A program made the translations under genes and the position numbers. DNA of 64,000 nucleotides from Candidatus Kapaibacterium sp. GTDB taxonomy: Bacteria; Bacteroidota; Ignavibacteria; Kapaibacteriales; UBA2268. The stretch spans positions 1,248,001 through 1,312,000 of the forward strand of contig OY761611.1 in assembly GCA_963664875.1 (NCBI GenBank), written 5' to 3'. Under the pieces are notes generated by a model, which was given only the letters and a program-made list of their open reading frames with translations, had not been told where the DNA came from and did not search any database. Positions 5,756-18,241 of the stretch are shown here, in pieces. The stretch's first letter is position 1. Every line of letters begins with the position of its first letter.

Positions 5756-6022
5756 ATGAAAGAAGTAGAAATTACAGTTTTAAACAGAGCCGGTTTGCAC
5801 ACTCGACCGGCAGCGACTTTAGTTAAACTTTCTGCTAAATTCAAATGTGATTTGCAACTTATCAGAGACGGTTTTCCTATCAATGCAAAAAGTATCATCG
5901 GAGTAATGACTTTGGCTGCTGAGCAGGGGTGCAAGCTAATGCTGAGAGCTGACGGCAGCGACGAAGAAGACGCAGTTGCGGAAATATCAAAATTATTTGA
6001 GAGTGGATTTGGTGAAATTTAA
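5756..6022 (+). CDS. ptsH: Phosphocarrier protein HPr
   Basis: GLHTRPAA (His15) and NAKSIIGVMTL (Ser46) motifs; 88 aa. Confidence 0.96.
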   Translation: MKEVEITVLNRAGLHTRPAATLVKLSAKFKCDLQLIRDGFPINAKSIIGVMTLAAEQGCKLMLRADGSDEEDAVAEISKLFESGFGEI

Positions 6023-6035
6023 GTAGGTAAGCAAA

Positions 6036-7805
6036 GTGGTTGAAGATTTTAACCTAAAAGTTCCATCTGTTCAGCGTTATTCTATTAAAACTTCTGAACA
6101 GAAAATTTATAAAGGTATCCCCTCCTCATCGGGCATAATGATAGGAAGGGCTGTGGTTATTCAACCTGAAAGTATTATTATACCCGAACACACTTTGCAG
6201 GCAGAACAGATTGACGACGAAATTAAACGCTTTAACTCGGCTCTAGATGCTTATAAAAATGACTTGAACAGAGTAATTGCAAATGTAAAAAATGATGAAG
6301 CTAATCTTTCTGCGATAATCGAATCTAATGTACTGATGCTGGAAGATCCTTCTCTGACAATGCCTATAGAAAACAATATCAAGTCAGGATATACAGCTGA
6401 AAGTTCCATTGTTTCTGCTATTGATAAGCTAAAATCATTCTTCAAAACCACTAAAGATGCAATTCTGCAGGAAAGAATCTTTGAATTGGATAATATTAAA
6501 AAAGGGCTTCTTGCTACCCTCCGCAACCAATGTTTTTATTATGCAGTTGCCAAAGACGCAATAGTCATTGCTAAATCACTTACCCCCACTGACGTAATCA
6601 ATTTTAGAGATGCCGGGGTAAAGGCATTTGTTACAGAAATCGGCGGCATTGCCTCTCACTCATCTATTCTGGCTCGAAGTTTTGAACTGCCTGAAGTAAT
6701 CGGTGTTCTTAACTCGACTGACAATATTAAAGACGGAGACTATGTGATAGTAGATGGCTATACCGGTCAGGTTATAGTCAACCCAACATCAAGAATACTT
6801 GAATCATTCCAACGAAAAAAATCTGCAGAAGAGGAACATAAAAGAGAACTCGGCGAAATCATAAACTTAAATACTGAGACTTTAGACGGTAAAAGATGCC
6901 ATCTGTATGCTAATGTAGATTTGCCGGAAGAAGCTCGTGCTGCTTTCCTATGGGGAGCCGAAGGTATAGGACTTTTCCGCTCAGAGTCATTGATAGTAAG
7001 TCTTGGATATTTCCCAAGTGAGCGAGAACAGTTTGATTTCTACAAACAACTTTCGGACACTGCATACCCCAAAGAATTGACAATCAGAGCTTTCGACGTC
7101 GGATCTGACAAATGGGCTGAAGGTTTACCAACCAGAGAAGACAACCCTGCATTAGGTTTTAGGGGGATAAGATTTTTACTCACAAGAAAAGATCTTTTCA
7201 AGATTCAAATACGAGCTATCCTCAGAGCTTCCATAAACAAAAATATACGTTTTATGTTGCCGATGATTTCTTCGGTACAGGAATTGCAGACAGCACACAG
7301 CATCATAGCTGATGTAAAAAATGAACTTGACTTAGCTGATATTGCATACGATACCCAAATGCCAATAGGCATAATGATAGAAACTCCTGCGGCTGTCCTT
7401 CTTGCTGAAGATTTGGCAAAGTATGCTGACTTTTTCAGCATTGGTACTAATGATTTAACTCAATATACTGTCGCTGCTGATAGAACAAATGACCTTGTTT
7501 CCAATGTTTTTGATACTTTCAATCCGGCAGTTATCAGACTCATCAAAATGGCTATAGACGCAGCTAAAGCAAATAATATACCTATCGGAATTTGTGGTGA
7601 ATTTGCAGGACACGCTGCCTCCACAGCAATACTTATTGGTTTAGGTATAGATGAACTTTCGGTAGCCCCTCCTATTTTACTTGAAACTAAAAACAGAATT
7701 CGAAGTTTAAATTATGCTGAAGCAAACGAAATAGCAAATCAGACACTTGCTTGCTCCACCAGCTCTGAAATTAGTAATATTTTGGACAAAATAATCACAG
7801 AATAA
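6036..7805 (+). CDS. ptsI: Phosphoenolpyruvate-protein phosphotransferase (PTS enzyme I)
   Basis: GGIASHSSILAR phospho-His motif, EGIGLFRSE, NPALGFRGIR, FSIGTNDLTQY and ICGE. Confidence 0.96.
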   Translation: MVEDFNLKVPSVQRYSIKTSEQKIYKGIPSSSGIMIGRAVVIQPESIIIPEHTLQAEQIDDEIKRFNSALDAYKNDLNRVIANVKNDEANLSAIIESNVLMLEDPSLTMPIENNIKSGYTAESSIVSAIDKLKSFFKTTKDAILQERIFELDNIKKGLLATLRNQCFYYAVAKDAIVIAKSLTPTDVINFRDAGVKAFVTEIGGIASHSSILARSFELPEVIGVLNSTDNIKDGDYVIVDGYTGQVIVNPTSRILESFQRKKSAEEEHKRELGEIINLNTETLDGKRCHLYANVDLPEEARAAFLWGAEGIGLFRSESLIVSLGYFPSEREQFDFYKQLSDTAYPKELTIRAFDVGSDKWAEGLPTREDNPALGFRGIRFLLTRKDLFKIQIRAILRASINKNIRFMLPMISSVQELQTAHSIIADVKNELDLADIAYDTQMPIGIMIETPAAVLLAEDLAKYADFFSIGTNDLTQYTVAADRTNDLVSNVFDTFNPAVIRLIKMAIDAAKANNIPIGICGEFAGHAASTAILIGLGIDELSVAPPILLETKNRIRSLNYAEANEIANQTLACSTSSEISNILDKIITE

Positions 7806-7845: not shown

Positions 7846-7873
7846 AAAGCTGCCCGAAAAAATCCGAGCAGCC
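7846..7873. terminator. Putative terminator between ptsI and the rhodanese gene
   Basis: GCTGCCCG...CGAGCAGC imperfect stem with an adjacent A-run (U-tract on the minus strand). Confidence 0.5.
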
Positions 7874-7904
7874 TATAAAAACTTAATATCATAAAGTAAT
7901 GAGC

Positions 7905-8918
7905 TTATTCAGTTACTTTGGGATATTCATAAGATTCTTTAGATTCATCCCAAACAGTAAGTTTACCTGCAACCATTTTGTCGTAAATCATTGCATTTGC
8001 ACCATAAAGAAGTGATTTTGCATTATAACCTAATACCTGAAGGTATGCTGCTATATAAGCACTTGTTTGGCCAGTGTAGCAATAAACAACAACTTCTTTA
8101 TCTGTAGGTAATGTTTTCAAATCGTTGGAGAACATCAAGCTTTCGCCCGGTGTATATTGAATAGCACCTGCAACGTGTCCCGGATCAGTATAATGTGCCA
8201 ATGACCAATAATTTACGATATAGTATTTTGACAAATCAAGGTATAGATTAGCATTCGTAATTTTGGCAACATCGAAGCCTGCAGCTAAAGCAGCTTCTAC
8301 TCTTGCTCTAAGAATTTCAGGACCGGTTTTTTTGCCTGTATTCAAAGTAGGAAGTTTGCCTGCAGCAGCTTTTGGAGTTTCTGTGCTTGTGAAATCTTCG
8401 GCTCTTGAGTTTCCGATGTTTTTGTTCCAAACGTTAACTGCATTTTCTTTATTCCAAGAAGACATACCCCATTTCAAAGAAGAAACTTTTGTGTGTCCCA
8501 TCATTCTCAATAAGGATGCACCATAAGCAGCAGTTTGACCTGAGTAACATACAATTACGATATCAGTATATTGTGATTCGTCTAAGCCTTCAACATGTGT
8601 AAGAAGATTTGCCAACGTTACATTATGTGCACCTTCAATGTGACCGCTTTTGAAGTCAGCTTCATTTCTGATGTCAATTAAATATTGTTTGCCGGGATTT
8701 GTTGACATATCTGTATAAAGAGCTGAAGCACCTTTTACTACCGGGAACTTCAAATTGAGAGTTTCGAGATACTCTGCCAATACCTGTGACTCATTGATAG
8801 TAACAGGATTAGTAGGTGTATCTTCGTCATCATCACTACAAGCTGTGAATGACAAACCTAATGCTAATAACATTAGCATAAATAGGTAATTAGAACGTTT
8901 TAGCATTTCTTTAAACAT
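7905..8918 (-). CDS. Tandem rhodanese-domain lipoprotein (sulfurtransferase-like)
   Basis: Lipobox FTAC; two rhodanese domains (LIDIR..GHIEGA..VCYSGQTA and GHVAGA..VYCYTGQTS); GGAGG RBS. Confidence 0.88.
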   Translation of the reverse strand: MFKEMLKRSNYLFMLMLLALGLSFTACSDDDEDTPTNPVTINESQVLAEYLETLNLKFPVVKGASALYTDMSTNPGKQYLIDIRNEADFKSGHIEGAHNVTLANLLTHVEGLDESQYTDIVIVCYSGQTAAYGASLLRMMGHTKVSSLKWGMSSWNKENAVNVWNKNIGNSRAEDFTSTETPKAAAGKLPTLNTGKKTGPEILRARVEAALAAGFDVAKITNANLYLDLSKYYIVNYWSLAHYTDPGHVAGAIQYTPGESLMFSNDLKTLPTDKEVVVYCYTGQTSAYIAAYLQVLGYNAKSLLYGANAMIYDKMVAGKLTVWDESKESYEYPKVTE

Positions 8919-8960
8919 AGGACCTCCTAAAAGAAAATATATAAAAATATTTGAAAATTA

Positions 8961-10316
8961 CTATTTAACACCCCACGAAGCAGGCAATTTATCATCAACG
9001 GCAACGTGTTCGGTTGATTTCAATTCCCAATCTTCTTTCAAATCAGATTTGAACAAATACAAATCTTTGTTTCTGAGGCTGTCGCCTTCTTTTATAATAT
9101 GGCACGCATCATAACATGGTTTACCATCAGCAGGTGAACACTGTGCTGTTACTGTTCTGATATTATGAGGCGATGTATAATTATAAATTGGGAAAGCATC
9201 AAAATTAGCAAGTTTAGATTCACCATATTCTTTCCAGCTGTCAGGAGCCATAAGACTTCTTCTTACTAGAACCATTTTGCCCGGTCTGACATCTTGAATC
9301 GGATTGACACCTATTTTGTAGTCAAGATATGAAGGAACTCTTGCACCTTCACCATGAATGTGGCAGCTTCCGCAATTGTTATATGGTTGCGAGTGGCAAA
9401 CATAACAATTCAAATCATTGATATGCATCGAATGGTATTTATTTGCCTTTTCGAGACTACCATGGCAATCTGTACACTGAGGCAAATTAGGATCGTTGTA
9501 ACGGGTTTCATATTTGTTGCCGTCGCCGTGCATTTCTTGAGTGCCATGACATGCAAGACAATCAAATTTCATTTTTTCGAAGTGGATATCAACTTTTGTT
9601 CCCGGTGCCATTCCAAGATATGCGTGACCGCCTCGGCTTGAGTGACAAGCAACACAAGTATTAGTCATATCCGGTTTTCTGACGAAATTGTGTCCGTCTA
9701 TCAAACCGCCACCACCGGCAGGTGGTCTATTTATGTGACATTCGCCGCAGGTACCGTGGCATCTGGCACAGTTGAAATCATAACCGTGTTTCAGGTCATC
9801 AGGAAGCTGGTCAAACTCATGAGAGCCTGCAAGCCCGTATCTTGTTGTTACTTTTCTTTTTTGTCCCCACCCATTAACATGGATGCTGGTTAGAGCATTG
9901 TGCGATTTTGTAGGGTGGCACTCAGCACACTTATCCATAGCAACGTGTGAAGGAGCGCTAATAAAGTCACCAGAGTGAGCTTTAACCTTGTCATTTGTGC
10001 CTTCAACACCATTATGGCAATAAGTACAACCAAGTTTGTAGTGCTTAGATTGTTTGAATTTTTGATAACCCGAACCTCCAAGATAAACTCTGTCATAAGG
10101 TTCGATATGAACAACATCGCCGCTACAACCTCCTGCAACCTCTCCGGTATCAGGTGAATACACTGCTTTTAGCAATTCATAGTCTGCGTGGCAGCTTTCG
10201 CAGGTGCTGAGCACTTCAGTTTTGTCGATTGGTGTAGTATCTTCGTCATCGCTACAAGCTGAAATGACAGAAAGAGATACACTAATCAGTAATAAGAATA
10301 ATAGCCTTTTTTTCAT
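8961..10316 (-). CDS. Multiheme c-type cytochrome lipoprotein (10 CxxCH + 1 CxxxCH) with a non-heme GGCSG motif
   Basis: Lipobox ISAC; heme motifs counted manually; start MKKRL follows a GGAG RBS. Confidence 0.9.
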   Translation of the reverse strand: MKKRLLFLLLISVSLSVISACSDDEDTTPIDKTEVLSTCESCHADYELLKAVYSPDTGEVAGGCSGDVVHIEPYDRVYLGGSGYQKFKQSKHYKLGCTYCHNGVEGTNDKVKAHSGDFISAPSHVAMDKCAECHPTKSHNALTSIHVNGWGQKRKVTTRYGLAGSHEFDQLPDDLKHGYDFNCARCHGTCGECHINRPPAGGGGLIDGHNFVRKPDMTNTCVACHSSRGGHAYLGMAPGTKVDIHFEKMKFDCLACHGTQEMHGDGNKYETRYNDPNLPQCTDCHGSLEKANKYHSMHINDLNCYVCHSQPYNNCGSCHIHGEGARVPSYLDYKIGVNPIQDVRPGKMVLVRRSLMAPDSWKEYGESKLANFDAFPIYNYTSPHNIRTVTAQCSPADGKPCYDACHIIKEGDSLRNKDLYLFKSDLKEDWELKSTEHVAVDDKLPASWGVK

Positions 10317-10347
10317 GGCGTACTCCAATATATATTACCCATGTGAA

Positions 10348-12456
10348 TTATTTCGGGTTATGACAATCTGAGCAATATTGATTCAAAATATCTTTATCCA
10401 AACCGCCAGGGTGAATAAATGTGTTTGCATTTAAACTATCCGCCAAAGGTTTTCCGGCAACAAGTTTGGTAGTAATAGTATGGCATAAATTGCAATCATT
10501 GCTCAAAACCTCTCCTGCTTTATTCACGTGATTACCGTCATGGCATCTGAAACACCCTTTGCTGTATAGGTGCGATTCGTGATTAGCATAAACTTTCCAA
10601 TTTGCATTCATCTCAGGGAAATAGTTTTTGAGGTAAATTGCATTCAATTCAATTATAGCCAGATTTAATTCATCTCGCATATCTATAGGAACGTTTGGAT
10701 AATTCTCTTTATAATATTTAGTCAAAGCATTTTTGATTTCCTCAATCGAATTTTCTCTTGATTTCAAAGATTCTAATACTCTAACGCCAATTTTTTTGAT
10801 ATTCGGCAATTTTGAATTTATTTTGTCATAAGCCATATAGGCATTTATTGTCTGATATGGGTCGTTATAAACATGCGACGGCCTATTGTGGCAGTCTATA
10901 CAGTCAAATTTCTTAAATTGAGCAGTTGGTGATATTTGCTTGCCTGTCAATCTATAGACTGTTTCTTTTCCGTCAGTTTTTGATATAGCTTTTACTAAAG
11001 GAATCGCATCATCCGGGTTATCTGGTTCGATATAAAGAATATCTTTGCTTATTCCCATGTGATAGTGAATGCCGGAACTGATACCGATTTCTCTGTTACC
11101 ACCACCTACTTTCATAGTTAGTGTGATACTATAGTGAGTATTTTCTTCGTCAGAGAGGAAATAATCACGCTTGAAAGATTTTTGTTCGTAATATTTTTCT
11201 TCCCAGTGGCATTTTTTACATGCTTCGGGAGACGGTCTCAAATATGTTGTAGGAGCTCCTAATGGCTTTTCATAACTGTCAGTAATGGTCATATATACCT
11301 GTGGCAAGCCGCTAAGTCTGTTTTGATCCCAAAACGAACTTTTTTCAGTGAAGTGGCAATCCACACATGCAATCTTAGAGTGCGGAGAAGATGCGTAAGT
11401 AACACTCACGGGTTCCATAACTTCGTGGCAGGCTTCCATACAAAAGCTGTTAGATTCTGTATATTCGTAGGCTTTCCTGCTACCGTAAATAGTAGTAATA
11501 ACAATAGTAAATGACACAACAGAAATGAGAAAGAAAAATAGCTGATGTTTTGCTCTGTTAAAGTCTAACAGAGGCAATCTGCGTTCTATATTTTTTTGTT
11601 TGTTTCTGTTTTCGTTTAGCCAACCAATCAGGATTACTATCAATCCCAAGAATAGAACCGAAGGAATGATAATGTAAGTAATCAGCCTTGTATAAGGATT
11701 GTTTGTCCCTACTAAAAACTCAAAAATTAAGAGTAGAACTATAAACACTAAGCTGAGCATAGTAATAAATGCACCGGATAGGGAGATTGGATTAGTAAGT
11801 AAGCTTGGTAATTTATCTTCATGTTCTTCTTCGTGATGATCTTCGTGTACTACGTGATAACCTGTAAACATAGCTATAAAGTGTTCGGAAGGAGTATTAC
11901 CTGTCGTTGCAAGATAGATATGAACAAACATAAATATCGTTAGGAAAAATCCCATTACAGTGTGTAGCATTGCCATAGGCCATACACCACCCATTCCGAA
12001 TATCTCATCAGGAGCCAGCTCCGGAAACATTAGAAACCAACCGGAAGCAATAATTACAGGAAATCCTATAAATACTATAAAGAAATAAGCCATCTGCTGC
12101 ATAGGATTAAACTTTTCTTTTTCACTAGCATGATAAGGATGCGGTTCGCCGAGGAAAATACCAAAAGTGTAAAACCTTGCCTGCTTTATAGAGCGAGTAA
12201 TAAAATTTCTCAAAGATGGCAAATAGTGCTTTATATTGCCGGAACTTATGTTTAAGATAAAATAAAAAAGATATAGAAAAGATAAGGCTATACCAGAAGT
12301 ATTGTGAGCAATCATAGCCACTTCGAAAGAAAAAAGAAAATCTCCGCTGCCGGCATAGTGCAAACTCATACCTGAAACGATAAGCACTACAAAGATTAGT
12401 GCGTTTAGCCAATGCCAAAGTCTGAGCCAAATCGGATATAAATATAACTTTTTCAT
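10348..12456 (-). CDS. Fusion of cytochrome b (CbcB/PhsC-like) with an ImcH-like NapC/NirT heptaheme cytochrome c
   Basis: N-terminal RLWHWLNA..H..KFNPMQQ..H..VHIYL diheme b domain; His-rich linker; 3 TM helices, then FCMEACHEVM..SPHSKIACVDCH and 5 more CxxCH. Confidence 0.85.
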   Translation of the reverse strand: MKKLYLYPIWLRLWHWLNALIFVVLIVSGMSLHYAGSGDFLFSFEVAMIAHNTSGIALSFLYLFYFILNISSGNIKHYLPSLRNFITRSIKQARFYTFGIFLGEPHPYHASEKEKFNPMQQMAYFFIVFIGFPVIIASGWFLMFPELAPDEIFGMGGVWPMAMLHTVMGFFLTIFMFVHIYLATTGNTPSEHFIAMFTGYHVVHEDHHEEEHEDKLPSLLTNPISLSGAFITMLSLVFIVLLLIFEFLVGTNNPYTRLITYIIIPSVLFLGLIVILIGWLNENRNKQKNIERRLPLLDFNRAKHQLFFFLISVVSFTIVITTIYGSRKAYEYTESNSFCMEACHEVMEPVSVTYASSPHSKIACVDCHFTEKSSFWDQNRLSGLPQVYMTITDSYEKPLGAPTTYLRPSPEACKKCHWEEKYYEQKSFKRDYFLSDEENTHYSITLTMKVGGGNREIGISSGIHYHMGISKDILYIEPDNPDDAIPLVKAISKTDGKETVYRLTGKQISPTAQFKKFDCIDCHNRPSHVYNDPYQTINAYMAYDKINSKLPNIKKIGVRVLESLKSRENSIEEIKNALTKYYKENYPNVPIDMRDELNLAIIELNAIYLKNYFPEMNANWKVYANHESHLYSKGCFRCHDGNHVNKAGEVLSNDCNLCHTITTKLVAGKPLADSLNANTFIHPGGLDKDILNQYCSDCHNPK

Positions 12457-12457
12457 C

Positions 12458-13897
12458 TTATTTTCTTCCTGAACGTTTGAAATACCATCTTAAAAAGCTG
12501 TGAAGAACCAAAAATACAGCAGTAATGCTTAGAAGCATAATAAAGCCGGTATCTAAGATTGCATTCCTTGTGGTCCCTACAACATAAGCGTCGCTTAAAA
12601 TTGTACCGTTTATAAAACCAAATTTTTCTCTTGATTTTTCTTTTTCGTGTTTATATAGCTTTGTCATCAATATTGAATTTTTTGAGTGACACTCTTCGCA
12701 CTTTTGTACAGTTTTTTCAGGGGGTAAAATGTCGTGAGACATGTGCGGTTGCGAAAAAGATGAGTGACAGTCTGTGCATCTGACAGTCTCCCAGTGTATG
12801 GACATTTTAGGGAGCCATTCGTGAGCTTCCTGCACTGTACTTACATCATATTTATCCATCATTGCTTTGTCAACGTGGCAGACCACACAATACACCATCT
12901 GATTTTCGATAAATGTTGTTTTATTTATATGATTAGCAGTGAAAACAGATGCCTTGATGTCCGGAATTTTTGCTATATCATGTTCACCATGGCAAAATGT
13001 ACAAGCCGGCGAATCCGGATTGCCTTTAGCGAGTGCTTTGCCGTGTATGCTCATTTCATATTCGTGAGCAACTGAGATATGGCATTTACCACATACTTTA
13101 GATATTTTTGACTTATGAACTGTCGAATTTGGAGAAGAAGATTTTTGCAAATCATGAGTACCGTGGCAATCAATACATGTAGCTGCATTTTGATTGCCTG
13201 ACATCAACTGGCTACCATGCACACTTTTTTCGTAATTCACTAAGGATTTTGAGTGTGATGTCTGATTTTCTGACTTGATATGGCAGCTGATGCAAAGCTT
13301 TTCCTGATTGATTTTCAGCTGCAAAGCATTTTTTTCACTTGCAGGCGTAATAGCACTTCTGTGGCACGAAATACATGTCGGAGACCTATGACTGTTTTCA
13401 ACAAATTTGTGCTCACTGGTATTATGCAATTTTACCACATCTTCATGGCAAGCACCACAGTAAGCTACAGATTTGGAAGCATGCATTGGTGATTCTTCAG
13501 ATTTTGGACTAACAACCTGATGAGTCCCGTGACAAGCCTTGCAATCATTTAGCTTAGCATAATCTTTGTGATTTTTATTTTGCATAGCCGCATGAAAAAG
13601 ATGTTTTTTAGCAGCATCTGTATGGCATGATGCACAATCGATTGGCTTTATATTTTCAGCATGCGGGACATCCTCTGCATTGAAGCCTTTGTGGCAATCA
13701 ACACATTTTAACTTACTATGCGGAGAATTAGCCAAATCAGCAGCTTTCACATAAAGCGAAATCTCTTTGCCATTTTTCTCCATAGAAATGTCTTTATCCG
13801 AGTGACATTCCATACATAGTTCTTCAGCAGAAGCAGATAGTCCCAAGCCGACAACTAAAATCAGGGCTGTAAACATCAGGAGAAAATAATTTTTCAT
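12458..13897 (-). CDS. 13-heme c-type cytochrome with C-terminal membrane anchor (CbcA-like)
   Basis: Signal peptide; 13 CxxCH; C-terminal YVVGTTRN..TM helix..H..LR; stop codon 1 nt before the cytochrome b gene; ORF track start 13909. Confidence 0.88.
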   Translation of the reverse strand: MKNYFLLMFTALILVVGLGLSASAEELCMECHSDKDISMEKNGKEISLYVKAADLANSPHSKLKCVDCHKGFNAEDVPHAENIKPIDCASCHTDAAKKHLFHAAMQNKNHKDYAKLNDCKACHGTHQVVSPKSEESPMHASKSVAYCGACHEDVVKLHNTSEHKFVENSHRSPTCISCHRSAITPASEKNALQLKINQEKLCISCHIKSENQTSHSKSLVNYEKSVHGSQLMSGNQNAATCIDCHGTHDLQKSSSPNSTVHKSKISKVCGKCHISVAHEYEMSIHGKALAKGNPDSPACTFCHGEHDIAKIPDIKASVFTANHINKTTFIENQMVYCVVCHVDKAMMDKYDVSTVQEAHEWLPKMSIHWETVRCTDCHSSFSQPHMSHDILPPEKTVQKCEECHSKNSILMTKLYKHEKEKSREKFGFINGTILSDAYVVGTTRNAILDTGFIMLLSITAVFLVLHSFLRWYFKRSGRK

Positions 13898-13909
13898 GAC
13901 ATCATCCAT

Positions 13910-14364: not shown

Positions 14365-14958
14365 ATGAAATTGAAAAAAGTGATTTTCGGATTTATCGCT
14401 GTTGCCACCATGGCAGGTGTTGTTTCTACAATATCGCTAACTTCGGTAACAAGCAAAGAAAGCCCTAAGTACATCGGTGCAGACAAATGTAAAATGTGCC
14501 ACAAAGGCGAAAAAAAAGGTGACCAGTTTAAAATATGGTCAGAAGGTGCACACGCAAAAGCTTATGCTACTTTGGCAAGTGCAGAATCTAAAGCTATCGC
14601 TGCAAAAATGGGAATAGCTGACCCTCAAAAAGCTCCTGAGTGTTTGAAATGCCACGTAACAGCCTACAATGTAGATGCTTCTCTCAAAGAAAAAACATTG
14701 AAATTAGAAGAAGGTGTTTCGTGCGAATCTTGCCACGGTCCCGGTTCTGAGTATAAAAATATGACTGTGATGAAAGACATTAGTTTAGGTAAAATCGATG
14801 GTGCTGACTTAGGCTTCAAACAGCAAACTGCAGAACTTTGCAAGCAGTGCCACAACGAAGAATCACCTACATACAAAGAATTCAAATTTGAAGAAAGAGT
14901 TAAAGAAATTGCACATCCGATGCCGGATGCTTATAAAAAGGAAAAAGGATATAAATAA
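14365..14958 (+). CDS. Tetraheme c-type cytochrome (cytochrome c554-like)
   Basis: YIGADKCKMCH..W..GAHAKAY..CLKCH..EGVSCESCHGPGS..CKQCH; N-terminal signal/anchor; AGGAGG RBS. Confidence 0.9.
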   Translation: MKLKKVIFGFIAVATMAGVVSTISLTSVTSKESPKYIGADKCKMCHKGEKKGDQFKIWSEGAHAKAYATLASAESKAIAAKMGIADPQKAPECLKCHVTAYNVDASLKEKTLKLEEGVSCESCHGPGSEYKNMTVMKDISLGKIDGADLGFKQQTAELCKQCHNEESPTYKEFKFEERVKEIAHPMPDAYKKEKGYK

Positions 14959-15016
14959 GATATTGATTGTATGAAGCAATCATACTTTTTTTCCATAACT
15001 ATTTTTGGAGGTCATA

Positions 15017-16033
15017 GTGAAAAAAACTATCCAAATGCTTTCGATGCTACTTGTGCTGGTAGTATTGGGAGGAATGTTCTCAGCTTGCGAAGGTCCGGAA
15101 GGTCCGGAAGGTCCGGCTGGGAAAACAGGACAAAATGCTCTTGCAACATGTGACAATTGTCACGACGTTAGTACTGATTTGAAAGCAAGAATGCTTCAGT
15201 ACGCAAAATCTACTCACGCGTTAGGTGGTAACTTCGAAAGAAGTACTGCTGATTGTGCTCCATGTCACACTCACGAAGGTTTCGTAAATGTATTAGCAAC
15301 CGGCGAAACTGGTGATATTAGTAATCCAACTCCTCCGGGTTGCCGTACTTGTCATAATATTCATACTACTTATACAGTAGATGATTATGCATTGACTGCT
15401 ACAGCTCCTGTAGAATTAGCGGTGGGTAGCAAAACATTCGACAAAGGTAAAAGTAATTTGTGTGCAAATTGCCACCAATCACGTCCTTTCACTTTGCCTG
15501 AATTCAATGATTCAGAATTTTCTATCACAAGTTCTAGATTTGGTCCTCACCATGGTCCTCAATCTAATTTAATTATGGCTGCCGGTTTAGTTGAAATCCC
15601 TGGCAACGCATCATATCCATCTACAAACCCACATGCGGGTACTGGTGATGGTTGCGTTGATTGCCACATGGCAAATGCTTACGGCACTCAGGCAGGTGGA
15701 CATACAATGTCTGTTGCTTATGATTACCATGGAACAATTGAACCAAATACTGCTGGCTGTATTTCTTGTCACACTGACGAAACAGAACTTATTACTAAAC
15801 TTGAAGACTACAAAACAGAAATGGATGGTTTAATGACTCAAATTTCTGAAATATTAGTAGAAAAAGGTCTTTTGACTGCTACAGGAAGTGCAGTAGCAGG
15901 CAAAACAACAGGTAAATTAGCTTCTGCTCTTCTTAACTATAGAACTATAGCAATAGAAGATAGATCTTATGGTGTTCACAATCCGAAATATGTAAGAGCT
16001 CTACTCAAAAACACATTAGAGTCTCTACAGTAA
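15017..16033 (+). CDS. Hexaheme c-type cytochrome lipoprotein with collagen-like tether
   Basis: GTG start after GGAGG; lipobox FSAC; (Gly-X-Y)5 segment GPEGPEGPAGKTGQN; 6 CxxCH; C-terminal DRSYGVHNPKY. Confidence 0.88.
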   Translation: MKKTIQMLSMLLVLVVLGGMFSACEGPEGPEGPAGKTGQNALATCDNCHDVSTDLKARMLQYAKSTHALGGNFERSTADCAPCHTHEGFVNVLATGETGDISNPTPPGCRTCHNIHTTYTVDDYALTATAPVELAVGSKTFDKGKSNLCANCHQSRPFTLPEFNDSEFSITSSRFGPHHGPQSNLIMAAGLVEIPGNASYPSTNPHAGTGDGCVDCHMANAYGTQAGGHTMSVAYDYHGTIEPNTAGCISCHTDETELITKLEDYKTEMDGLMTQISEILVEKGLLTATGSAVAGKTTGKLASALLNYRTIAIEDRSYGVHNPKYVRALLKNTLESLQ

Positions 16034-16038
16034 CATAA

Positions 16039-16112
16039 ATGGTCTGCCCTCCGCTGCTAAGCCTAAAGGAGCACTTAGGCTTAGCACCCGGGGCAGTACC
16101 ATATTTTTTTTT
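16039..16112 (+). terminator. Long intra-operon stem-loop / intrinsic terminator
   Basis: Perfect 12-bp stem TGCTAAGCCTAA/TTAGGCTTAGCA with outer CTGCCC/GGGCAG and ATGGT/ACCAT pairing, followed by a T9 run. Confidence 0.75.
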
Positions 16113-16130
16113 ATTCAGGAGCAAGCTATT

Positions 16131-17345
16131 ATGAGGAAATACTTATTACTCTTATGTTTTTTTACGGTAGCATATTTTGCTCAGGCAGATTTAACTTACA
16201 AAGCAAAAGTTACTTCCGGGCTTTTCTCAGGAGCTCAATTTTACAATAGAGAAAACCTCGAAGACAGATTGCTTAATCCTAACGAAGATGCTTACAGATG
16301 GTACAACCGTATAGCACTACAAAGCACTTATGACAGATTTTCTGTTAACTTTAATGCTATTCGTAGTGATTATCTTGACTTTGACGGAGTCAAACCTTAC
16401 TTCCCTCGAAATGAAATTAACGAAACTAAAATGTATCAGGCTTATGCTCAGTATAAGTTCGATGACGGTAATATCAAATTAGGTAGAGTAATGCCGTTTT
16501 CAAGATGGTATTTTAGCTCTGTCGATGGCGGTTCTTTTGATTATCAGGTCAATTCCAATTTTTCTGTAAGTGCTTTTGCAGGTAGTGATGTAGATTACGG
16601 TCTTTTTGTTGATGATGACAACAGAAAAGCCGTTGGCTACACAGAAATTGCCTATCGCGAGCAAAATTATGGCGGTAAAGTAAAATACTTGTACGCTAAC
16701 GAAGAATCTAAACTTGGAACTGATTTGTTTTTTAGAACAGATAAGCATCGTGTAGCTGCAAACATTGGTTATGATGCGACTAACTCTCGCCTATTTGATG
16801 CAGGTTTAGGATATTTTGCTTACTTAACACCTGAGCTTAATGTTTCTGCTAATTACTTACGTACAATTCCTATCAGCTGGAGCTATAAATTCTATTCCGA
16901 ATATATAGACAGAGTTCAGATTGGAATCAGCTATGATTTAGGTAAAAACTATACAGTATCTTTAAAACAGATGCTTGGTCTTGCTGATGGTAATTCAAAC
17001 TATTTGACTTATCTCTATCTCACTCATAAATACTTTTATGTAGGTTTAAATTATTTATCAGGCGATATGGAAGCAGAACGCTTAGCTATCACTTGTGGCG
17101 GACAGTATTCCCCTATGGATAACTTAATGCTTCAAGCCGGTATAGCTTCTGTAGATCATATGTTTGATAATTTTTACTATAAAGACGAACAAACATATTC
17201 TTCGTACTTCAAAGTAAGATACAAAGCACTGGACTATTTAAACCTTGCTGCCTACGCAAACTACTACCACCAAAATTCTATGTTTGATAACAAATGGCGT
17301 GGCGGTCTGACTGCCCAACTTATACTCGCAGGAGGTGGGAAATGA
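16131..17345 (+). CDS. Putative outer-membrane beta-barrel (porin of a porin-cytochrome conduit)
   Basis: Signal peptide (AQA); Tyr/Phe/Gly-rich alternating amphipathic strands; no heme motifs; flanked by multiheme cytochromes. Confidence 0.72.
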   Translation: MRKYLLLLCFFTVAYFAQADLTYKAKVTSGLFSGAQFYNRENLEDRLLNPNEDAYRWYNRIALQSTYDRFSVNFNAIRSDYLDFDGVKPYFPRNEINETKMYQAYAQYKFDDGNIKLGRVMPFSRWYFSSVDGGSFDYQVNSNFSVSAFAGSDVDYGLFVDDDNRKAVGYTEIAYREQNYGGKVKYLYANEESKLGTDLFFRTDKHRVAANIGYDATNSRLFDAGLGYFAYLTPELNVSANYLRTIPISWSYKFYSEYIDRVQIGISYDLGKNYTVSLKQMLGLADGNSNYLTYLYLTHKYFYVGLNYLSGDMEAERLAITCGGQYSPMDNLMLQAGIASVDHMFDNFYYKDEQTYSSYFKVRYKALDYLNLAAYANYYHQNSMFDNKWRGGLTAQLILAGGGK

Positions 17346-18241
17346 AAATTTTTCAGATAATCATTAGCTCAGTCGCTCTGCTATCTGTGGTACTTATGGG
17401 CATATATAGCTCAAACATGACTGCTGACGATACAGTAAAAAGCTGGGAGTCGGATTTGATTTTTTCTCATGCAAAACATGTGATTGAAAACGAACTCGCC
17501 TGCGAAACTTGCCATGCTGATGCTGCAAATTCGGAAACAGGTAATGACGATTTGCTTCCTAAGGAAGAAACTTGTATCACTTGCCATGAGAAAACTGAAG
17601 AATCTTGTGTGATGTGTCATACTAATCCGAAAAATCCAAAAATCATGCCTCGGATTACTGACTATTCTCAAAAGTTTAGCCATAAACAACACATAGACAA
17701 AGGTGCTGACTGTAACTCATGCCATACTGATATTGCTAAAAAAGACAAGGTTGCTAAACCTAACTTACCTGATATGCACAAATGTATGACTTGCCACGAA
17801 ACTCCGGAAGAAACTAAAGAATGTTATATCTGTCATGATCAGGATTATAATCTAATTCCAAAAGATCATACTGAAATGTGGCTCGATAATCACTCTAATT
17901 TTGTGGAAGCGGAAGGCAACAAATGCCAAACTTGCCATCAGGAACAGTATTGTATGGATTGCCATAGAGGCGAAAACCTCTTTAACAATTCTCACCCTCC
18001 TCATTTTATGGCTACTCACTCTATGAGCTATCTAATGAGAGAGTCTAACTGCCAATCATGCCACGAAGGTCTGGAATCTTGTAGAGAATGCCACATGGAA
18101 ATAAACTATGTCATTCCTCCTGATCATATGCCATCTACCTGGATCGGCGAACATATGTTCTCCGGAAAAATCAATGCTGATAAGTGCGTTGTTTGTCACA
18201 GGAAAGATGAGCCTCGTTGTATGGATTGTCATACTAAATAA
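17342..18241 (+). CDS. Dodecaheme c-type cytochrome (cytochrome c3/c7-like repeats)
   Basis: 12 CxxCH with FSH..H motifs; ATGA overlap with the porin stop; hydrophobic N-terminus; ORF track start 17294. Confidence 0.9.
   Translation: MKIFQIIISSVALLSVVLMGIYSSNMTADDTVKSWESDLIFSHAKHVIENELACETCHADAANSETGNDDLLPKEETCITCHEKTEESCVMCHTNPKNPKIMPRITDYSQKFSHKQHIDKGADCNSCHTDIAKKDKVAKPNLPDMHKCMTCHETPEETKECYICHDQDYNLIPKDHTEMWLDNHSNFVEAEGNKCQTCHQEQYCMDCHRGENLFNNSHPPHFMATHSMSYLMRESNCQSCHEGLESCRECHMEINYVIPPDHMPSTWIGEHMFSGKINADKCVVCHRKDEPRCMDCHTK

Follow-up and report, generated by a model that had tools for sequence, protein, structure and literature searches.

An eleven-heme cytochrome and tandem-rhodanese lipoprotein pair with a conserved cysteine or predicted selenocysteine: a candidate reductase for sulfur compounds

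In the Sud/PsrABC system of Wolinella succinogenes, a terminal reductase fed by quinol receives its polysulfide sulfur from a periplasmic carrier of the rhodanese type. That reductase is a molybdopterin enzyme rather than a cytochrome and Sud has a single domain, and in both respects the system differs from the module considered here, namely an 11-heme lipoprotein cytochrome and a tandem-rhodanese lipoprotein encoded side by side in a stretch of 64,000 nucleotides from Candidatus Kapaibacterium sp. (GenBank assembly GCA_963664875.1, contig OY761611.1, positions 1,248,001 to 1,312,000 of the forward strand), which we call the window and number from its first letter. A preliminary description, made from the sequence alone, had read this pair as a candidate polysulfide, sulfur or selenium reductase analogous to the rhodanese ExtH and the multiheme protein ExtKL of Geobacter, and that analogy is now stronger than when it was drawn: multiheme enzymes with a catalytic selenocysteine (Sec) were shown to drive elemental-sulfur respiration, in Geobacter, only in August 2026, when MccSep (ExtKL, GSU2937-2936) of Geobacter sulfurreducens proved to be a polysulfide reductase that depends on Sec and is indispensable for sulfur respiration (PMC13510729). 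As described there, MccSep is a pentaheme selenoprotein with a His/Cys-ligated heme and its Sec on a mobile loop, and it reduces selenite at lower efficiency and is inactive with thiosulfate and tetrathionate (PMC13510729). Selenite and tellurite reduction was the function to which the ext cluster of Geobacter, which includes ExtH and ExtKL, had first been linked (PMC5877670).

As a proven polysulfide reductase, MccSep is the best functional counterpart of the 11-heme cytochrome among described proteins; both are multiheme c-type cytochromes with a Cys or Sec on a glycine loop, both come in Cys forms and in Sec forms (predicted ones in the present family) that gene callers split at an in-frame TGA, and both are encoded near a rhodanese lipoprotein, which in Geobacter is ExtH. 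In architecture the two differ: MccSep joins five CxxCH hemes to an immunoglobulin-like C-terminal domain that bears the Sec/Cys in a DGUP loop (U, Sec) near the C-terminus, whereas the present family has 11 hemes and carries its Cys or predicted Sec near the N-terminus, in the context GxG-U/C-GG. MccSep further possesses a second strictly conserved Cys, C239, which ligates heme 2 and has no conserved equivalent here, and its reported range covers Desulfobacterota and Nitrospirota, whereas the Cys form described below occurs in Ignavibacteria, Kapaibacteria and Bacteroidales and the TGA form in Anaerolineae and others. The expectation of the preliminary description that the cytochrome is a different one is borne out by family models as well, in that the NCBIfam ExtKL model NF040886 finds no match at an expectation value (E) of up to 0.01 in either the window cytochrome or five TGA-containing relatives read through at that codon.

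These comparisons bear on a first alternative, in which the pair would reduce selenite or tellurite for detoxification or respiration, with the rhodanese binding selenium and the Cys or Sec attacking the oxyanion. Such a role would echo both the first link made for the ext cluster (PMC5877670) and the lesser selenite activity of MccSep (PMC13510729), but we consider it distinctly improbable: selenite is the poorer substrate of MccSep, no NCBIfam selenite/tellurite operon model or ExtI-type porin scores above cut-off, and a distribution over some 500 species genomes and some 1000 protein clusters per branch exceeds what would be expected for a rare trace substrate.

The cytochrome open reading frame (ORF) runs on the minus strand from an ATG at 10316 to 8961; homologs share the MKK start encoded at 10316, and an alternative TTG start at 10328 is possible. 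Its translation begins with a signal peptide and an ISAC lipobox, the Cys21 of which is nearly invariant in an alignment of 68 sequences, and contains ten CxxCH motifs (residues 39, 97, 130, 183, 190, 221, 253, 281, 304 and 315) and one CxxxCH motif (residue 401). Within the back-to-back heme pair CARCH-GT-CGECH, residues C183, C186, H187, C190, G191, C193 and H194 are invariant in the same alignment, where eight His residues outside the motifs are likewise invariant and a ninth is nearly so; set against 11 hemes, this hints that some heme may be without a conserved distal His, though alignment uncertainty weighs on the count. Pfam and NCBIfam return generic multiheme matches only, below or near their cut-offs. 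The neighbouring rhodanese is a lipoprotein with an FTAC lipobox, in which the Pfam Rhodanese family (PF00581) matches two stretches above cut-off (E 4e-27), and its lipobox Cys27 and the two loop residues Cys124 (CYSGQT) and Cys280 (CYTGQT) are kept in all 75 aligned sequences, one from the window and 74 from further loci. The preliminary account of both genes, from reading frames and motif counts to the lipobox and the paired heme motifs, is upheld by these data. It was also right that both rhodanese loops keep their Cys, but not that this sets the protein apart from other tandem rhodaneses, as its best match in the PDB, 6mxv, likewise has one loop Cys per domain.

Homologs of the Cys-type cytochrome fall into more than 1100 protein clusters; the best 120 of these are all at least 52% identical, and the NCBI names among them include Ignavibacteria, Kapaibacteria, Melioribacteraceae and Bacteroidales. 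When each species was represented by a single genome, a scan returned 496 cytochrome relatives among 511 pattern matches, and we examined the best 80 loci, all of Cys type. In 77 of them the cytochrome gene is followed immediately, on the same strand, by a gene for a rhodanese homolog; in the remaining three (L018, L029 and L073) the contig breaks off no more than 360 bases from the cytochrome gene. The pairing of cytochrome and rhodanese, a co-occurrence on which the preliminary interpretation had leaned, is near-obligate. What lies upstream differs from locus to locus, and around the pair we find Crp/Fnr-type regulators (29 of 80 loci), MarR (18), sigma-54 activators (12) and other cytochromes, and no outer-membrane barrel gene travels with it across the 80 loci. 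Our search of the literature found no published description of this 11-heme cytochrome and rhodanese family. Many homologs are named 'thiosulfate/3-mercaptopyruvate sulfurtransferase' by the Joint Genome Institute (JGI), the same misnomer that is recorded for DealDRAFT_1917 of Dethiobacter (PMC10376724), and the sulfurtransferase name has probably spread among these cytochromes as an annotation error.

Between heme motifs 1 and 2, at residue 64 of 451, the window cytochrome carries a Cys in a glycine-rich GGCSG loop. Cys64 is invariant in 23 of 23 aligned relatives (52–82% identity) and is the sole invariant Cys of that alignment outside the heme motifs and the lipobox; its conservation is therefore beyond chance. 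A structural disulfide as the cause of this conservation was considered and rejected because no second non-heme Cys is conserved that could serve as its partner. The preliminary description had singled out this Cys and its TGT codon correctly, and a second non-heme Cys has to be added to its account: Cys393 (9138–9140), which precedes the CxxxCH motif by eight residues, is confined to 4 of the 23 sequences, namely the window and its three nearest relatives, and in that clade it might act as a resolving Cys. Two His residues co-vary with the Cys or predicted Sec state of the family, as His70 and His231 are found in 22 of 26 and 24 of 26 Cys forms, respectively, and are replaced in 42 of 42 TGA forms; speculatively, they may help activate the thiol. 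In an AlphaFold2 (AF2) model of the cytochrome built with 68 sequences, the mean predicted local distance difference test (pLDDT) score is 83.4 whereas residues 58–69, the Cys64 loop, stay below 50, which suggests that this glycine-rich segment could be a mobile arm.

A distant branch of the family carries an in-frame TGA where the window has TGT. Among 457 cytochrome relatives retrieved at E up to 0.001 in a search of cluster representatives, 17 of the 150 listed are ORFs without a signal peptide that begin at most four residues before a conserved E-P/A-W motif, so that their start sits just after the Cys64 position. In metagenome DNA, 553 of 599 pattern matches proved to be relatives of this branch (35–40% identical), and the analysis went on with the best 80; as these were picked by likeness to a truncated query, they show that a large TGA branch exists and not what share of the family it makes up. 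All 77 assessable loci have a single in-frame TGA that aligns precisely with Cys64, the other three having no upstream DNA, and the context of this TGA is G-U-GG in 75 loci, S-U-GG in one and G-U-VG in one. Once the TGA is read through, 59 complete genes regain a signal peptide, a lipobox and their first heme motif; each has one such codon, they carry 10 to 13 CxxCH motifs, and one of them (L084) ends early after 249 residues. A hairpin of eight pairs with a GUU loop begins nine bases after the TGA, a spacing that would fit the rule for bacterial selenocysteine insertion sequence (SECIS) elements. Standard pairs make up 91% of this hairpin in 68 distinct TGA-form sequences, against 38–49% in slid controls, and compensatory changes occur at four of the eight pairs, one of which is GC in 40 sequences, CG in 18 and UG in 7; the covariation score was reached by none of 500 shuffles. 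At the protein level the main compensatory pair amounts to a linked swap between VAPLEPW and VPPLEAW. In 79 Cys-type loci the same columns are 46% paired and the hairpin is absent.

Given the in-frame TGA at the Cys64 position and the compensatory hairpin, we predict that the TGA-branch genes encode selenoproteins routinely truncated by gene callers, as the preliminary description had foreseen in suggesting that homologs might carry Sec at this very position. A profile of this branch retrieves 974 clusters at E up to 1e-30; all 120 best listed clusters start right after the TGA site and have no signal peptide, and the few NCBI names among them are of Anaerolineae. The rhodanese accompanies this branch as well: leaving aside 21 short contigs, 59 loci could be fully assessed, and 58 of them have the gene adjacent and in the same orientation (50 downstream, 8 upstream); the exception is L109, in which both flanks are present and the rhodanese is absent. 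The rhodaneses beside TGA forms often have three to five domains. The predictions of the preliminary description that lent themselves to computation, namely a conserved GGC Cys, a rhodanese neighbour and homologs with an aligned TGA, have all held, and its interpretation is supported.

Two other accounts of the TGA were rejected. A true stop that yields two genes is at odds with a downstream part devoid of an export signal and with the conservation of both frame and hairpin, and a recoded genetic code is contradicted by the read-through genes themselves, 15 of 59 of which end in TGA, so that TGA is a stop codon in those organisms. In a quick unrooted tree, the 24 Cys forms of the window's group cluster together (support 100) and another Cys form, P0140, falls within a TGA clade (support 98); at least two switches between Cys and Sec are therefore needed. 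No SelA match occurs in the window's own complete genome, which fits because its cytochrome is a Cys form. Sampling the phylum of a Chloroflexota-labelled locus gave a match in 12 of 301 genomes, all without stops and thus evidently of the Cys branch. The word 'cytochrome' has no occurrence in the deep-Sep and BSepDB papers. Three prokaryotic selenoprotein families with heme-binding motifs appear in a table of a 2026 review, namely ExtKL, the GSU2204-family CXXCH protein (also MtrB/PioB-type outer-membrane beta-barrel) and the tetrathionate reductase family octaheme cytochrome; the same review mentions Sec-containing members of the last family as listed in GenBank annotation (PMC13188914).

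The nearest solved structure is an enzyme of that same octaheme class. When the family profile was compared with the PDB, the first match was the octaheme tetrathionate reductase (OTR) of Shewanella oneidensis, 1sp3 (E 3.3e-8, 36 bits), and an exhaustive VIA-align comparison placed 1sp3 first as well (Z 7.5, root-mean-square deviation 4.5 over 251 residues, model residues 89–451), with the next hit at Z 3.1. Foldseek with the AF2 model against the PDB gave nothing at E up to 0.001, a single-sequence PDB search with the cytochrome gave nothing below E 0.06, and the OTR model TIGR04315 found no match at E up to 0.01 in the window cytochrome or the five read-through forms. Because 1sp3 ranks first in structural comparison and in the sequence profile alike, the family is a distant, enlarged relative of octaheme OTR. 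The 1sp3 profile alignment shows a Cys of OTR that binds no heme and lies between heme motifs 1 and 2, as Cys64 does in the present family; Mowat and colleagues reportedly assigned it, in 2004, a role near the active-site heme. The kinship stops short of equivalence: OTR has eight hemes as opposed to 11, it is not known to pair with a rhodanese, and heme 1 and the Cys64 loop lie in an N-terminal extension outside the OTR-aligned part. No equivalent of the OTR-type Lys ligand was identified and no Lys is invariant in the alignment; K110 recurs in 25 of the 26 rows of Cys type and in 34 of the 42 rows of TGA type, and a heme-free model does not show ligation.

A possible relative is DealDRAFT_1917 of Dethiobacter alkaliphilus. 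According to its description, this protein has 10 hemes and no predicted signal peptide and adjoins the rhodanese DealDRAFT_1918 and a regulator. No other SirA-like cytochrome rose reliably when cells were grown on thiosulfate, and an earlier annotation had wrongly called it a thiosulfate sulfurtransferase; in the paper it is grouped with octaheme-type SirA/OTR proteins, and the word selenocysteine does not occur (PMC10376724). Judged from that description, it looks like a TGA-truncated member of the 11-heme family and is a candidate for membership. Together with the OTR kinship, it brings forward a second alternative, in which the cytochrome would be a thiosulfate or tetrathionate reductase, Cys64 forming a thiosulfonate or persulfide adduct, in the manner of active-site Cys residues in heme enzymes that convert thiosulfate, and the rhodanese, as a thiosulfate sulfurtransferase, splitting thiosulfate or delivering its sulfur. 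That OTR is the only significant solved relative and shares a non-heme Cys between the first two heme motifs speaks for this possibility, as do the likeness of a membrane protein encoded upstream to PhsC (171 bits with the NCBIfam thiosulfate reductase cytochrome b subunit model, below its cut-off of 204) and the response to thiosulfate of DealDRAFT_1917, a probable relative that shares its sulfurtransferase misnomer with many members of the family. Nevertheless we hold it to be unlikely, albeit the most serious competitor to the reading we favour, as TIGR04315 finds no match, the Cys64 loop lies outside the part that aligns with OTR, the nearest functional analogue MccSep is inactive on both compounds (PMC13510729), and the membership of DealDRAFT_1917 is presumed from its description.

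The two lipoprotein genes close a tight operon of four genes on the minus strand (Table 1), and the stop of the first gene, for a 13-heme cytochrome, overlaps the start of the second. The protein encoded by this second gene has six CxxCH motifs, one CxxxCH motif and six hydrophobic stretches, and it matches the Pfam families Ni_hydr_CYTB (E 3.3e-23) and Cytochrom_NNT and, in addition to the cytochrome b subunit model mentioned above, NrfH in NCBIfam. We regard this fusion of cytochrome b and NrfH-like parts as the probable menaquinol dehydrogenase of the operon and the 13-heme cytochrome as a probable electron wire, and these neighbours in the window suggest that electrons would be supplied from menaquinol. 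A promoter scan was uninformative, with 30 sites where 25.5 were expected. Pathways of sulfur oxidation make use of rhodaneses too, and a module of multiheme and quinol components is reversible in principle. An oxidising enzyme for sulfide, polysulfide or thiosulfate, similar to TsdA or SoxAX and passing electrons to the quinone pool or another acceptor, is a third alternative, and the catalytic-Cys heme enzymes TsdA and SoxAX are called oxidative and reversible by the MccSep authors (PMC13510729). We judge it improbable nonetheless, since proteins of the NrfH and PhsC types, such as those encoded here, are known to oxidise quinol on behalf of reductases, the Crp/Fnr-type regulators next to the pair agree with anaerobic respiration, and neither Sox nor Dsr genes appear in the loci, a count that covers the loci and not the genomes around them.

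Table 1. Features of the cytochrome and rhodanese operon, in window coordinates.
Feature	Position	Strand	Basis or remark
13-heme cytochrome, 483 residues, signal peptide and C-terminal hydrophobic anchor	12458..13909	minus	first operon gene
Membrane protein, 702 residues: N-terminal PhsC/HydC-type cytochrome b fused to NrfH/NapC-like multiheme domain	10348..12456	minus	
11-heme lipoprotein cytochrome, predicted catalytic subunit, 451 residues	8961..10316	minus	ORF and motif counts
Cys64 TGT codon, Gly-rich loop GGCSG; position of the in-frame TGA in distant homologs	10125..10127	minus	codon read
Back-to-back heme pair CARCH-GT-CGECH, residues 183-194	9735..9770	minus	motif count
Tandem-rhodanese lipoprotein, 337 residues, lipobox Cys27	7905..8918	minus	Pfam Rhodanese (PF00581), two stretches
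Rhodanese Cys124 (CYSGQT) codon	8547..8549	minus	
Rhodanese Cys280 (CYTGQT) codon	8079..8081	minus	
Terminator-like hairpin, 12 pairs then T run, 31 bases past the rhodanese stop	7847..7874	minus	marks operon end

Directly after the lipobox Cys, both lipoproteins carry an acidic stretch, CSDDEDT in the cytochrome (10236–10256) and CSDDDEDT in the rhodanese (8817–8840), as do many of their homologs. Because such a stretch resembles what we take to be the surface-export signal of Bacteroidota lipoproteins, both proteins may possibly be exposed at the cell surface. On the plus strand, the divergent cluster at 14365–18241 encodes a c554-like tetraheme protein, a 6-heme lipoprotein with a GPEGPEGPAG stretch, a 404-residue aromatic-rich protein with a signal peptide and no Pfam match, and a 12-heme cytochrome; it could be a porin-cytochrome conduit, and its full set recurs only in loci L001–L004. 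On the other side, HPr-like and phosphotransferase system (PTS) enzyme I genes of ordinary appearance (5756–7805, plus strand) converge on the operon. A fourth alternative would make the 11-heme protein a plain electron-transfer cytochrome for extracellular or metal reduction, with Cys64 as a heme ligand or structural residue that tunes the potential and the rhodanese as an accessory. The many other multiheme genes of the window, its possible porin-cytochrome set, the acidic stretches and weak Pfam matches to MtrC/MtrF-type domains in relatives of the cytochrome would all agree with it. Of the readings considered, however, we find this one the least probable, as a predicted Sec kept throughout a branch together with its SECIS-like hairpin is costly and known from catalytic redox residues, a near-obligate rhodanese has no role in metal reduction, and no outer-membrane barrel gene goes with the pair.

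We consider it quite likely that the 11-heme cytochrome acts, by way of a catalytic Cys or Sec, as a redox enzyme of some kind on sulfur or selenium compounds. A predicted Sec with its own insertion element, interchangeable with an invariant Cys, points to a catalytic redox nucleophile, and a near-obligate rhodanese with two active loops suggests the handling of sulfane sulfur. In view of the Cys/Sec residue, the apparently mobile loop, the rhodanese and the quinol-type neighbours, we favour a terminal reductase that cleaves S–S bonds, to which we assign a rough probability of 0.45; its likeliest substrate would be sulfane sulfur from polysulfide or elemental sulfur, with thiosulfate or tetrathionate in second place and clearly less likely. 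From sequence and model we infer Cys64 catalysis, a sulfur relay, the substrate, the reductive direction and an electron path as parts of one scheme. In it, the reductase would reside in the periplasm or cell envelope with the cytochrome as its catalytic subunit. Menaquinol would be oxidised by the cytochrome b/NrfH fusion protein, from which electrons would pass through the 13-heme protein to the chain of 11 hemes. The tandem rhodanese would carry sulfane sulfur as a persulfide on Cys124, Cys280 or both and hand it to Cys64, which on its flexible glycine-rich loop would be the catalytic nucleophile, a place taken by Sec in relatives; alternatively, Cys64 could attack the substrate directly. 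In either case, the resulting Cys64 persulfide or polysulfide adduct would be reduced to sulfide by the hemes.

Several observations weigh against this scheme. MccSep needs two chalcogen residues, a heme-ligating Cys and the Sec, whereas only one is conserved here, so that the chemistry cannot equal that of MccSep. The OTR kinship and the thiosulfate proteomics of Dethiobacter (PMC10376724) point equally to thiosulfate or tetrathionate. The cytochrome b/NrfH and 13-heme genes recur in only the four closest of the 80 loci, so that the module as a whole does not conserve the proposed electron donor, and the AF2 model contains no hemes and leaves the Cys64 loop undefined. Finally, the Cys is absent in some relatives, with Tyr in P0123 and Trp in P0141, P0155, P0164 and P0169. 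In these Trp forms a TGA may have been translated as Trp. P0275 likewise has Trp where the Sec is expected, and both P0164 and P0275 are fused calls that run between rhodanese and cytochrome over an intergenic stretch; such fused and Trp-bearing calls may stem from gene calling in which TGA is read as Trp.

A bolder version of the reductase, which we put forward as a doubtful proposal, would have the single Sec or Cys on its swinging glycine loop serve as the distal ligand of a c-type heme, or lie directly over it, with the multi-site rhodanese as its dedicated substrate carrier, and would make the pair a new class of respiratory sulfur reductase. If so, the TGA forms would hold a natural His/Sec-ligated heme, and the module would explain sulfur, polysulfide or thiosulfate respiration in those Ignavibacteria, Bacteroidales, Anaerolineae and Dethiobacter-like organisms that are without molybdopterin sulfur reductases.

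Taken at its more general strength, the cytochrome and its rhodanese probably represent a widespread, undescribed enzyme for respiring sulfur compounds. By family model the 11-heme proteins are unrelated to ExtKL, they hold more than twice the hemes of MccSep, and they extend over 496 relatives in species genomes, more than 1100 Cys-branch clusters and 974 TGA-branch clusters. Should the family be a sulfur-compound reductase, it would provide a gene marker for sulfur cycling in abundant lineages of sediments, aquifers and digesters, and it would correct the recurrent misnaming of these cytochromes as thiosulfate/3-mercaptopyruvate sulfurtransferase. It would also add a selenoprotein family that annotation now cuts in two, and with it a natural pair of Sec and Cys enzymes in which to study why selenium is used.

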